From Bdellovibrionales bacterium (GTDB lineage: Bacteria > Bdellovibrionota > Bdellovibrionia > Bdellovibrionales > UBA1609): a DNA stretch of 32,000 bases. The notes under the pieces were generated by a model. The model worked only from the letters and a program-made list of their open reading frames with translations, was not told where the DNA came from and did no database searches. Location of the stretch: positions 840,001 to 872,000 of the forward strand of contig OY843585.1 of NCBI GenBank assembly GCA_963692945.1. Reading direction: 5' to 3'. Both the position numbers and the translations under genes were made by a program. Positions 28,434 to 32,000 of the stretch are shown here, piece after piece; the stretch's first letter is position 1; each line of letters opens with the position of its first letter.

Positions 28434-31400
28434 ATGCCTTTTAAAAAAAGTACTTTCCTCCTATGTTTGTTTTTCTTTTCTGATGCAGGTTTTTCTTTTG
28501 ATGATAGCAGTTACAATGGGAATTATTATAATTTTGAATTCAAAACAGAGAGCGACTATAGCAAAGAAAGAATAGATAAAGCTCTTGCCTGTTTTGATTT
28601 CACTTGCCTTGAAAATATTGAGAAACAACTTAAAAAAGATAGCTACAATAACCTTTATAAAGATTGTAAAGAAAAAGAAAAGGAAGCAAAAAATTGTTGC
28701 CATACAGGCTCTTGTAAATTTGAAGATAGTGATAAAGCGGATAATAGAGTAAATTATTTTCATTCTCTTAAACCTCAATCTCAAGATGAATGCAATCAAT
28801 ACTTAGATGAATTTTCTACAGACAATACAAACCTTTGTAAATCCGACTCTAAATATTGTGTAGAATCTTGCAATGATTCTCTTAGAGATTTAAAAAATAA
28901 TTTTCTTCAATGTTTTAACAGTGAAATTAAAGAAGAAGATATTAAAGGTCTTTTTAAAAAAGCAGAAGAAGATGCGAAAAAAGAAAATTTAAATCCTGAA
29001 ATTAAGAAATGTTCTGAAAAATTAAGTGCTATTTCCAAAAAATATAAAGAATTGACTCTAAATAAAAAGACTTACCTTTCTAAAGAATCCAATGCAAAAG
29101 AAATTACAGTTTGTAATAAATTAGAATCTAAACAAAAAGATATTTCTGAAAGATTTATGAATCAATTTAGATTTTTAAATTGCAACCAACATTCACAAGA
29201 TTCCCCACAAAATCCAGAAACTCAAGGAGAGCAAGAATCACAACAAAGAGGAGAGCAAGAATCGCAACAAAGAGAAGTGAGAGATAGAGCAAGTCTAGGA
29301 GGGGCTACTGCTATTGCTGGAGGGACTTTACTTGCAGGAAGTGTTTTAAATGCCAATTCAGATAAAGCCAGACAAGATGATTCTTTAGATACAAAAATTC
29401 AAGAAGAAAATAAGATTTTAGACACAACCAAGACAGATAAAAACTCAAAAACAGAAAAAGAAATTGCATACTTAGCAGAAGTCAAAAAGATAAATGATGA
29501 AATAAATGAGGCTATTAAAAATAAATATCCAGATTCTTCTGTAAGGAAAAGTCGTAGTGCAAGTGGATCCTCGTTGAGTTCCAATACTAAAATAGAAAGA
29601 GATGTGGCTGAAACAAATATACTAGATAGAAAACGAAATATGGATAAAAAGATAGAAGAAGAACAAACTTCTTTTATTGATAAGGTTAAAAAAATGGGAA
29701 GATATATGTCTTTTCAAAGTAAGAGAGGTTTAATGGCTCTTAATAGATTAATGGGTGGAAAAGTTCCTTTTTTAAAAGATGTTACATTATTAGAAGAAGA
29801 TGAATTTTTAAAAATATGTCCTGATTTAATTAGCCAAAAAGTTTTTCAGTCCGCCGAAGCTCCACAAATTGAACCAAACATTACACTTGAAGAATTAAAA
29901 GCCATTGCAGATAGTAGATACGGGGGTTATATTAAGCAAGCCTATGAAGATTATTTAAAAACAGAGGTTTATAATAATTATGACCTTCTTATGAATAAAC
30001 CATCGGGTGTATTCATAGAAATGGAAAGCATTGCTGATATAGAAAAAATAGATGATTTTGTAAAGGATAATTTAAAAATATCTCTTGGTCTAAAAATAAA
30101 TGAAAAAGATTTTAATATAACTTGTTTAGATTCTCTTGGAAATCCTCAAACAAGTCATCGTGAAAAGATGGATATAAAAAATTCAAACTGTGTTTCTTAT
30201 TTAAAAGATTTTGATAAAGACAACAAATTACTTAAGTTTACTCCTTTACCAACAGATACAGGAGAGGTTTTGAGTAGCAAGGGAAAACACTTTCTAAAAC
30301 TTTCTTCCAAGATTCAAATTCATGGACAAGAAATGGAATGCCCTTCAAAGTTAGATTTTTCTATAACTATGCATCAACCTAGATCTTTTGATATATGGTT
30401 TACTGGGATTACAAGCAAAACATGTGGCTATGGAGAAATTCAAAGTGATGATGTGGAGGAATTTGCTAACTCCTTAGAAATAACAGAGGCTTTTCCTAAA
30501 ATGTTTCCTGTGGCTAAAGATCATCAAGGAGGGAGTTATGCAAAAATTATTAAAAAAAATAACAAAACAGATTTAATAAATGGAGATTGCACAAAACCAA
30601 ATAAAGGAAGTTGGAGTTGGCTTGTTATAGGTAATCCATTACCAGAAGGAGCATTTAAAGATATCAAAAGTGCATTAAAAAAAATTAGATTACGAGGAAA
30701 GGATCGTATAAGTCTTATTGTGCCAAGAAAATATCTGGCATTTCATAAAGTAAGGGCTCTTGGAGCGGTGTTTACTAATATATACAAAAAACGTTCTATT
30801 TTTGCAGGTTGGACGAAAGACACATCATTTCAAAGCTACAGAGTGGCTATTACAGATCAAGGCTATCAAGATAAAGGTGTGATGCTTCACGAATTAGCCC
30901 ATACCTTTAATCAATTGAAAGAGTTTTATTTTTCACCTGCTGATCCTAAAACTGATAAGCCAGACAGGTCTTCTTTTTGTCATAACTTTATAGGAGGTGG
31001 TAAAAAAGAAACCGAGCTTAAAGATAACAATAAACCTTATGTTGGTTTAAATCACAGCTCTCCTTATGGGCCTTATGAGCTTATACCTTGTCCTAGTTTA
31101 GAAGTTAGAGGACTTTATAAAGACCAACAAAATGATTGGATGGCTTTAAATCAAAAAGGGACAATTATGAACAATCAGCCAGATTTATTTGATGGAAATG
31201 GTAATTACCAAAGATGGATAAGTCGTGAAACTTATCAAAAAGTTTTTGCAACCCTTTATCCTAGAAAAGGCTCTAACATACTAGGTCATGGTGACCCTAT
31301 ATTAAAAAATAAGCCCTTTCAATCTCAACTTAGAAATCCAGCAAATGCTCAATGTAAACAATTGCTGTTTTCTAGTATTTATGGAAATCAAAAAGCAACA

Positions 31401-32000
31401 GGTAAAGAAACAGGAACTCTTGTTGATACGAGTATTGAACTCAATAGCAAGGCTTTAACAAATTCTAAATCTATAGATAAAAGTAAAGTTCCTTTTGGGG
31501 AAGTTGCACCCAATACAATCAAAGTTCAAATTAAAAAAGATTTTAAATCACAACCTGAACAAGAAATTTTATTTAATAATACATCTTCTATAGAGTTCTT
31601 TTATGAAGGAGGTAGAACTAAAAATGAAGTTTCTAATGTTTCCCCTCTGGTTGTATCTGAAGTTTTATGTGATGTTGCTGCAAATTATATAGTTTCTGTC
31701 ATAGAAACTTTAGACAATGGGAAGAGTCATCATCTTATAAATCCAATTTCATTTAATATAAAAGACAAAAGTGTTGAAGATAAACCTACTAAGTTACCTA
31801 TAGTTGCATCTCAGTTTTATAATATAAATAGATTTAAAAATATACAAGCCATACAGAACTATTTACAACAATCTATAAATAGAAATGTAAATCCTTATGC
31901 TATACCTGTTCTTGACAAATATGGTAACACTCTTTTACATCAATCTATAATATACAACCGACCAGACCTTATAAATAAATTATTGAAAAAGAATAACAAT
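28434..32000 (+). CDS. large secreted Cys-rich HEXXH metalloprotease paralogue fused to C-terminal ankyrin repeat(s); 3' end beyond window
   Basis: Absent from the ORF track. ATG 28434 follows an in-frame TAA at 28428. I translated 1189 codons to nt 32000 with no stop. Signal peptide MPFKKSTFLLCLFFFSDA. HELAH at 30888-30902 (MLHELAHTFNQ). The window ends in DKYGNTLLHQSIIYNRPDLINKLLKKNNN, an ANK unit. It shares many motifs with 10007-12865. Confidence 0.8.
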   Translation, partial: MPFKKSTFLLCLFFFSDAGFSFDDSSYNGNYYNFEFKTESDYSKERIDKALACFDFTCLENIEKQLKKDSYNNLYKDCKEKEKEAKNCCHTGSCKFEDSDKADNRVNYFHSLKPQSQDECNQYLDEFSTDNTNLCKSDSKYCVESCNDSLRDLKNNFLQCFNSEIKEEDIKGLFKKAEEDAKKENLNPEIKKCSEKLSAISKKYKELTLNKKTYLSKESNAKEITVCNKLESKQKDISERFMNQFRFLNCNQHSQDSPQNPETQGEQESQQRGEQESQQREVRDRASLGGATAIAGGTLLAGSVLNANSDKARQDDSLDTKIQEENKILDTTKTDKNSKTEKEIAYLAEVKKINDEINEAIKNKYPDSSVRKSRSASGSSLSSNTKIERDVAETNILDRKRNMDKKIEEEQTSFIDKVKKMGRYMSFQSKRGLMALNRLMGGKVPFLKDVTLLEEDEFLKICPDLISQKVFQSAEAPQIEPNITLEELKAIADSRYGGYIKQAYEDYLKTEVYNNYDLLMNKPSGVFIEMESIADIEKIDDFVKDNLKISLGLKINEKDFNITCLDSLGNPQTSHREKMDIKNSNCVSYLKDFDKDNKLLKFTPLPTDTGEVLSSKGKHFLKLSSKIQIHGQEMECPSKLDFSITMHQPRSFDIWFTGITSKTCGYGEIQSDDVEEFANSLEITEAFPKMFPVAKDHQGGSYAKIIKKNNKTDLINGDCTKPNKGSWSWLVIGNPLPEGAFKDIKSALKKIRLRGKDRISLIVPRKYLAFHKVRALGAVFTNIYKKRSIFAGWTKDTSFQSYRVAITDQGYQDKGVMLHELAHTFNQLKEFYFSPADPKTDKPDRSSFCHNFIGGGKKETELKDNNKPYVGLNHSSPYGPYELIPCPSLEVRGLYKDQQNDWMALNQKGTIMNNQPDLFDGNGNYQRWISRETYQKVFATLYPRKGSNILGHGDPILKNKPFQSQLRNPANAQCKQLLFSSIYGNQKATGKETGTLVDTSIELNSKALTNSKSIDKSKVPFGEVAPNTIKVQIKKDFKSQPEQEILFNNTSSIEFFYEGGRTKNEVSNVSPLVVSEVLCDVAANYIVSVIETLDNGKSHHLINPISFNIKDKSVEDKPTKLPIVASQFYNINRFKNIQAIQNYLQQSINRNVNPYAIPVLDKYGNTLLHQSIIYNRPDLINKLLKKNNN
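29226..29273 (+). repeat. 24-nt in-frame tandem repeat (GEQESQQR x2)
   Basis: ggagagcaagaatcacaacaaaga (29226-29249) is followed by ggagagcaagaatcgcaacaaaga (29250-29273), with 1 mismatch. Confidence 0.9.

Follow-up and report, generated by a model that had tools for sequence, protein, structure and literature searches.

A predicted exported, metzincin-like protease with an in-frame ankyrin tail in a small-genome Bdellovibrionales bacterium: a candidate fused form of a protease-ankyrin gene pair

In the serralysin AprA-AprI/Inh, protealysin-emfourin and lipase LipA-Lif operons, the enzyme gene comes first and is followed by the gene of a small exported partner, which binds the enzyme in the periplasm. 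In Bdellovibrio, the gene of Bd3460, a signal-peptide protein of ankyrin (ANK) repeats, lies downstream of the gene of the endopeptidase Bd3459; the two are co-transcribed, and Bd3460 binds Bd3459 and inhibits it in the periplasm (PMC4686830). Here, I describe a long open reading frame (ORF) found in a 32,000-nucleotide stretch of a Bdellovibrionales genome (assembly GCA_963692945.1, contig OY843585.1, positions 840,001 to 872,000), which is called the window below. The genome is a single contig of 1.56 Mb with 31.7% G+C. The ORF starts at window position 28434 on the plus strand and is called ORF A; residues are numbered along its 1233-aa product, protein A. In my reading, which I hold at a probability of roughly one half, protein A would be a zinc endopeptidase of several domains that is exported by Sec and belongs to a metzincin-like family not described before, and it would represent the in-cis form of a protease-ANK pair.

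According to the original prediction, a metalloprotease paralogue fused to ankyrin repeats had been missed in the ORF list of the window. The plus frame is indeed open from ATG 28434 to position 32000 (1189 codons), and the downstream genomic sequence carries it on for 44 codons to a stop at genome positions 872133-872135, 132 nt past the window end. Since an in-frame stop lies one codon 5′ of ATG 28434, the start is fixed. ORF A was absent from the list because the default listing omits ORFs running off the window. ORF A does contain the two described minus-strand ORFs, both with TTG starts (28461-28799, 112 aa; 29399-29584, 61 aa). The contig ERZ22155170 of a sister strain in the European Nucleotide Archive (ENA) holds a syntenic copy (P0004) of 1224 aa and 99% identity, in the gene order SecF, ANK gene, 770-aa gene, ANK genes, A, ANK genes and rimP-nusA-infB, and Ank Pfam matches are annotated at that locus. 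The two copies differ by in-frame indels and by 24 non-synonymous and 14 synonymous codon changes (ratio of non-synonymous to synonymous rates, dN/dS, 0.43), with no amino-acid change across the 103 codons of the ANK tail. This intact syntenic copy means that the fusion is neither an assembly artefact nor a decaying gene. Thus, ORF A is a real, intact and conserved gene.

The ANK module begins at residue 1139 and extends to residue 1220 (from 31848 on the plus strand to past the window end at 32000). Pfam Ank_2 matches residues 1139-1217 with 27.5 bits against a cut-off of 27.3, and designed ankyrin (DARPin) chains match the tail in a phmmer search of PDB (E 6e-17). With the 44 extra residues, the tail comprises two clear repeats and a cap-like half repeat, that is, 2-3 ANK repeats. 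The rest of the protein resembles the product of window 10007..12865 on the minus strand (paralogue B, 952 aa), which has the architecture of A without ANK. The motifs quoted for the two proteins are collinear, and all of them fall within two BLASTP alignments (E 4e-22 for the C-terminal two thirds, residues 463-1055, and E 2e-13 for the N-domain, residues 45-286); VFQSAEAPQIEP at 29841-29876 and HELAH(T) at 30888-30905 are located as described. The predicted fusion of a metalloprotease paralogue to ankyrin was therefore upheld by the collinear paralogy, the family-wide HExxH, a weakly matched adamalysin-like fold and the Ank_2 score above cut-off. The supposed two-copy family has proved too small. 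At least five catalytic copies exist in the window genome, at genome positions 868434 (A), 850010 (B), 964627 (D), 967532 (E) and 1228912-1231838 (C), and one congener has up to 23 family matches, many of them broken.

Is an ANK tail common in this family? By Pfam, in-frame ANK repeats occur only in A and its sister-strain copy, which corresponds to one of the 55 distinct family members. What recurs in other genomes is not the in-frame fusion but ANK repeats encoded by a neighbouring gene. I surveyed the family loci with a usable 3′ flank, about 33 in number. At about 29 of them, a same-strand gene of an exported protein lies 0-130 nt 3′ of the protease gene, and several of the gene pairs overlap. 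The partner proteins are 170-270 aa in length and exported, most with a predicted lipobox, and they form two BLAST clusters, a non-ANK family at 21 loci and ANK proteins at 8 loci. Thus, the family is organized in two-gene cassettes, in which a protease gene is followed by the gene of a small exported partner of either the ANK or the non-ANK type.

The ANK partner genes at the 8 loci, belonging to the sister clade of A (see below) and to paralogue E, lie on the same strand as the protease gene with gaps of -36 to 108 nt. In the case of paralogue E, a 272-aa ANK gene is found 52 nt downstream. The closest relatives with retrievable context, namely P0154, P0155 and P0045 (located on three ENA contigs that are unrelated and differ in their flanks) and two congener loci, all have a same-strand ANK partner gene 3′ of the protease gene, 0-100 nt away, encoding 200-260 aa with a lipobox-type signal. 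The protease and ANK-partner identities fall together (64/56, 48/45, 35/34 and 70/67%). After P0154, four consecutive lipobox ANK genes (L052, 8258-10822) form two near-duplicate pairs, an arrangement like that of an immunity-gene array.

The non-ANK type is represented in the window by the partner gene of paralogue B (9432..9953, minus strand; 173 aa), which lies 53 nt downstream and has a lipobox-like ...IPCSC. Its family (alignment A5), including the partners of paralogues B and C, is marked by an ...FSCSC signal, FPDKxLxEI, YCY, RLYDK, AYLPYH and a C-terminal Cys. Its genes always lie just 3′ of family proteases (9432-9953 and 20 related loci). No match to the family was found in Pfam or PDB, and it may be regarded as a candidate new inhibitor or immunity fold.

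The position of A in the family was assessed with an IQ-TREE phylogeny of 42 catalytic domains. A is sister to a nine-member clade (ultrafast bootstrap, UFBoot, 100; Shimodaira-Hasegawa-like approximate likelihood ratio test, SH-aLRT, 98), in which all five members of known context have an ANK partner. The partner type clusters on the tree, with 3 changes compared with 6.5 expected from shuffles. A itself lacks a separate partner gene, and the window genome yielded no clear orthologue of the ANK partner of its clade. Since A is sister to the ANK-partner clade, lacks a separate partner and has in-frame ANK repeats, it is most likely, judging from these sequence comparisons, a protease-ANK pair fused in cis. 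A simple stop-loss joining of the old downstream partner was considered and is unproven, as the tail did not show any specific resemblance to the ANK partners.

Neither A nor paralogue B matched anything but ANK in Pfam and NCBIfam, and searches of PDB sequences for the catalytic domain, with protein A and with family profiles, returned only ANK proteins or none. The family conserves the motif G-x3-HExxHxLGQxK[ED]xY, followed by S-I-M about 90 residues on and then by a WIDR[DE]T helix. In A, the corresponding elements on the plus strand are, by alignment, HELAH (residues 819-823; 30888-30902) followed by TFNQLKEFY, a Met-turn-like T-I-M (31161-31169) and a WISRET helix (31215-31232). They lie in a predicted zincin/metzincin-like catalytic domain (residues 651-945; 30384..31268) recognized from invariant columns and from a model of the domain of paralogue B. 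Across the 55 members, H823 never varies, and H819 and E820 are kept in at least 90%; in alignments of 21-22 sequences, all three are invariant. The positions that follow are also conserved in the family (Q at +4, K at +6, [ED] at +7 and Y at +9, counted from the second His); the Lys at +6 is present in all five window-genome copies and in the majority consensus of wider sets. M912 is found in at least 90% of the members, and S/T-I-M is near-invariant.

An AlphaFold2 (AF2) model of 779 residues of A had a mean predicted local distance difference test score (pLDDT) of 60 and was confident only in the beta-sandwich and the catalytic core. With this model, Foldseek returned only beta-sandwich look-alikes (GH123 N-domains, PAD and pilins). 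Because it was uninformative on the catalytic part, the catalytic domain of paralogue B was modelled alone (pLDDT 87.3, predicted TM score 0.85). In this model, the HExxH lies on helix 164-172, and the S/T-I-M is predicted to lie between the last strand and helix 241-254. A conserved helical HExxH is what characterizes zincins (clan MA). The best PDB folds for the B domain belong to the adamalysin/reprolysin family M12B, namely ecarin (9clp), adamalysin II (2aig), atrolysin, ADAM8 (4dd8), ADAM10 (6be6) and TACE (3o64). Features in common with M12B enzymes are the HExxH helix, a Gly that most members have at the third residue past the second His, and paired conserved Cys residues; the conserved Met (S-I-M), predicted to precede the C-terminal helix, is a candidate counterpart of the Met-turn. 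Across the 55 members, Pfam gave weak catalytic matches to zincin families only (Reprolysin_2-5, Astacin and M64); the distant member P0121 alone exceeded the Reprolysin_4 cut-off (23.0 bits versus 22). Peptidase M64 (PF09471), to which the motif bears a resemblance, was rejected, as only 2 of the 55 members match it and the best scores 18 bits against a cut-off of 26. From the motifs and the model, the catalytic domain is predicted to be of the zincin type with a metzincin-like layout, and the structural matches weakly suggest an adamalysin-like fold.

Unlike M12B enzymes, A surrounds this domain with a Cys-rich N-domain, a beta-sandwich, a C-terminal beta domain and ANK repeats. By inspection, ORF A begins with a predicted Sec-type signal peptide, MPFKKSTFLLCLFFFSDAGFS/FDD (residues 1-21; 28434..28496), and the S/FD[DE] junction after it is common to A and paralogue B. 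It is followed by the Cys-rich N-domain (residues 32-263 with 14 Cys; 28527..29222), which had no match in Pfam. A local hidden Markov model (HMM) found this domain also in paralogues B and C and in about 40 family members, and it stands alone in three further ORFs of the window genome. Two N-domain-only ORFs (genome 727210-729303, minus strand, and 126608-127765, plus strand) both terminate in ...NCYTSF and have no protease domain. In A, a Q/E-rich stretch leads from the Cys-rich domain to a Gly/Ala-rich hydrophobic, glycine-zipper-like segment, ASLGGATAIAGGTLLAGSVL (residues 286-305; 29289..29348). Its mean Kyte-Doolittle hydropathy is 1.37, compared with 1.55 for the corresponding segment of paralogue B, and other family members have similar segments. 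Judging from its sequence, the segment may be a membrane-interacting anchor or hinge. A true transmembrane helix, which would make the protease cytoplasmic, was judged unlikely because the hydropathy is below usual transmembrane values and conserved Cys residues are found on both sides. These flanking Cys residues suggest that protein A is wholly extracytoplasmic.

A charged linker then connects to the beta-sandwich (residues 456-650; 29799..30383; AF2 pLDDT 80-90), which starts with a conserved QS(V/A)EAPQIEP strand and for whose region distant family members give weak CARDB matches. Beyond the catalytic domain, alignments and profile coverage define a family-wide C-terminal beta domain (residues about 975-1115; 31356..31778), at which the relatives' proteins terminate. 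All of these features are on the plus strand.

How far the family extends was assessed with a family profile, which found 163 proteins at E <= 1e-3 among 1.84 billion cluster representatives. Among 41 related genomes, the family was found in the window's own genus only, in 5 of the 9 congeners, and none was found at E <= 1e-5 in 400 genomes across the phylum (204 genera). A word-indexed homologue search returned only the sister-strain copy, followed by five relatives. Thus, by sequence searches and as far as these reached, the family seems to be confined to one genus of small-genome Bdellovibrionales. Its copies vary in several ways. Paralogue C (plus strand; L004, L066) is B-like and is split by a frameshift into 619 and 381 aa. 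An approximately 85-aa coiled-coil/Ser-rich stretch is almost identical between B and C while the remainder is only about 45% identical, which suggests gene conversion between them. Paralogue E (genome 967532-970327, plus strand) ends in an additional domain of about 210 aa that matched no Pfam family, and the distant member P0146 has three PKD domains; such C-terminal add-ons vary in the family.

What might the ANK tail do? It is proposed that protein A is exported through Sec and then possibly through a type II secretin; a GspD-type secretin is present in the window genome and would offer an available outer-membrane route. Outside the cytoplasm, protein A would act as a zinc endopeptidase, as the motifs and the model suggest. 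Its ANK tail would be the in-cis counterpart of the exported partner of the cassettes and, by analogy with Bd3460, might bind the protease itself, keeping the enzyme latent, or shielding the envelope of the producing cell, up to the point of enzyme release or tail removal. By the same analogy, the partners may be inhibitors, self-protection proteins or foldases. An action of the partner on the enzyme is suggested by four observations: two unrelated exported folds occur at the same position, the lipobox signals point to proteins kept in the envelope, the partner co-diverges with the protease, and partner genes have been multiplied, as in the four after P0154.

The cassettes resemble the Bd3459/Bd3460 pair in that, in Bdellovibrionales-type bacteria, the gene of a secreted hydrolase is followed by the gene of an approximately 23-kDa signal-peptide ANK protein. 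Unlike Bd3459, which is a serine DD-endopeptidase, the family is predicted to consist of zinc proteases, and unlike Bd3460, most of its ANK partners have a lipobox and, in A, the ANK repeats are fused. No specific sequence relationship between a partner and Bd3460 was seen, and the matches obtained were generic ANK ones only. The order of enzyme gene and small exported partner gene is also that of AprA-AprI/Inh, protealysin-emfourin and LipA-Lif. Those operons differ in that their partner folds are unrelated to the ones here, where the partners of a single protease family come from two alternating, non-homologous families.

Several findings weigh against the reading of A as a fused protease-ANK pair. 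With a branch length of 1.65, A is long-branched, so that its placement on the tree is less certain. The ANK tail most resembles the tandem ANK array of the window genome itself (31-40% identity), and no specific similarity was detected between it and the ANK partners of the relatives. In the AF2 model the tail has a pLDDT below 50, and no docking on the active site is visible. Paralogue D has no partner gene, and most cassettes use the non-ANK partner. As for the enzyme, A differs from M12B in having no sequence-level match, and the strict metzincin motif HExxHxxGxx(H/D) is not present, since Lys rather than His or Asp occupies +6 and the acid is at +7. The motif Gly (+3), near-invariant in the family, is Asn in A. 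The Foldseek matches of the B domain are weak, with E 5.6e-3 to 6e-2, probability 0.57-0.98, or 0.89-0.98 for the best folds, and TM 0.37-0.48.

The best surviving alternative, which I regard as possible but rather doubtful, is that A is a host-targeted effector. The protein would be secreted to a eukaryotic host, perhaps a sponge, where the ANK tail would recruit a substrate or localize the enzyme, and the cassette partners would be co-secreted adaptors. The window genome is ANK-rich, with about 40 ANK ORFs, and sponge-associated Bdellovibrionota with small, AT-rich genomes and many ANK domains are known (PMC9944714). Some relatives have metagenome-assembled genome names that look host-derived, other C-terminal binding modules occur in the family (PKD in P0146), and an adamalysin-like fold is typical of enzymes acting on extracellular proteins. 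A also shares the combination of ANK repeats and an enzymatic domain, in a small, AT-rich and ANK-rich genome, with the ANK effectors of Legionella (AnkH/LegA3 and AnkX) and the ANK proteins of sponge symbionts. However, Legionella-type ANK effectors are translocated by the type IV secretion system without a Sec signal, while A has a classical N-terminal signal peptide, and A scores only 15.3 bits with the NCBIfam model T4SS_AnkH (NF043023; cut-off 600). The ANK partners mostly have a lipobox and are thus probably kept in the envelope of the producer, and the unrelated, usually lipobox-bearing non-ANK protein in the same slot suggests that the partner's object is the enzyme rather than a eukaryotic target. 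The host of the window genome is itself only putative. The original prediction of a targeted effector thus describes a possible role, which is not favoured given the Sec signal peptide and the separate exported, usually lipobox-bearing ANK proteins of the relatives. A protease gene with a downstream exported ANK gene fits periplasmic inhibitor or self-protection pairs of the Bd3459/Bd3460 type at least as well as a substrate-targeting module.

It is unlikely that A belongs to a predatory lineage's arsenal of secreted antibacterial protease toxins, resembling polymorphic toxins, that act on prey or competitors, with the partner as immunity protein and the ANK tail as cis immunity or a relic. 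The Bdellovibrionales lineage, the expansion of copies with broken ones among them (the 23 matches in the congener and the frameshifted paralogue C), the multiplied ANK genes after P0154, the non-homologous displacement of partner types and the Bd3459/Bd3460 precedent would all suit such a function. On the other hand, no link to the delivery domains of type VI or type VII secretion systems, contact-dependent inhibition (CDI) or Rhs was seen; the family consists of large multidomain proteins in which the N-domains are conserved and swappable C-terminal tips are absent; and it would be unusual for a toxin to be fused to its own immunity domain. Least probable of all is that the tail is a recent neutral fusion or that A is a non-catalytic adhesin or pseudo-enzyme: the restriction of the fusion to one species, the long branch, the short tail that most resembles local ANK arrays and the change of the motif Gly to Asn fit such a reading, but the fusion is intact in two assemblies with an unchanged tail and an overall dN/dS of 0.43, the sister clade has long been associated with ANK repeats, and the near-invariant catalytic residues are all kept in A.

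ANK genes also surround ORF A. A signal-peptide ANK gene lies directly 5′ of it (27650..28333, plus strand), and more ANK genes are found downstream beyond the window on the minus strand. The upstream gene and two others flanking ORF A (L001, 5311-6057 and 6189-6566, minus strand) share a near-identical C-terminal tail, LLEKAEKEQTAAKARISR; the upstream gene is present in two tandem copies in the sister strain and in one in the window genome. Further upstream, positions 25223-27535 (plus strand) encode a 770-aa signal-peptide protein that has no Pfam match and occupies the same place in the sister strain. It shows an apparent internal duplication (AYYQDKLMKTLILLVF and AYYIDKLMKILILRSY). Near paralogue B, the minus strand encodes a TraG/VirB4-like P-loop ATPase (3431-5515), an Abi_alpha/DUF2806 protein (7328-8176) and a helix-turn-helix regulator (8578-9312), and a gene pair lies at 13284-15384 on the plus strand, whose first product resembles a cytosine DNA methyltransferase by eye only. 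These surroundings are consistent with a mobile or defence island.

Zincin proteases, ANK repeats and enzyme-partner operons are all of known kinds. New are two families, one of proteases and one of non-ANK partners, both absent from curated libraries, together with the alternation of partner folds and the natural protease-ANK fusion. The cassettes give a testable rule, namely that a gene of this protease family is accompanied by a small exported partner gene with one of two interchangeable folds, and the natural fusion argues for direct contact between protease and ANK repeats. Tentatively, this reduced Bdellovibrionales genus may have an expanded arsenal of secreted metzincin-like proteases, each matched by its own exported inhibitor or self-protection protein of one of two unrelated folds, ankyrin among them, A being the fusion that would show their direct contact. 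If true, self-protection by ankyrin repeats, exemplified by Bd3460 for peptidoglycan hydrolases, would apply to an entire family of proteases as well. Should the ANK partners be targeting modules instead, the family would represent a rare protease-ANK effector design. If they are inhibitors, ANK repeats in host-associated bacteria would not automatically be host-targeting 'eukaryote-like' effectors, and the ANK-rich genomes of symbionts would have to be reread.

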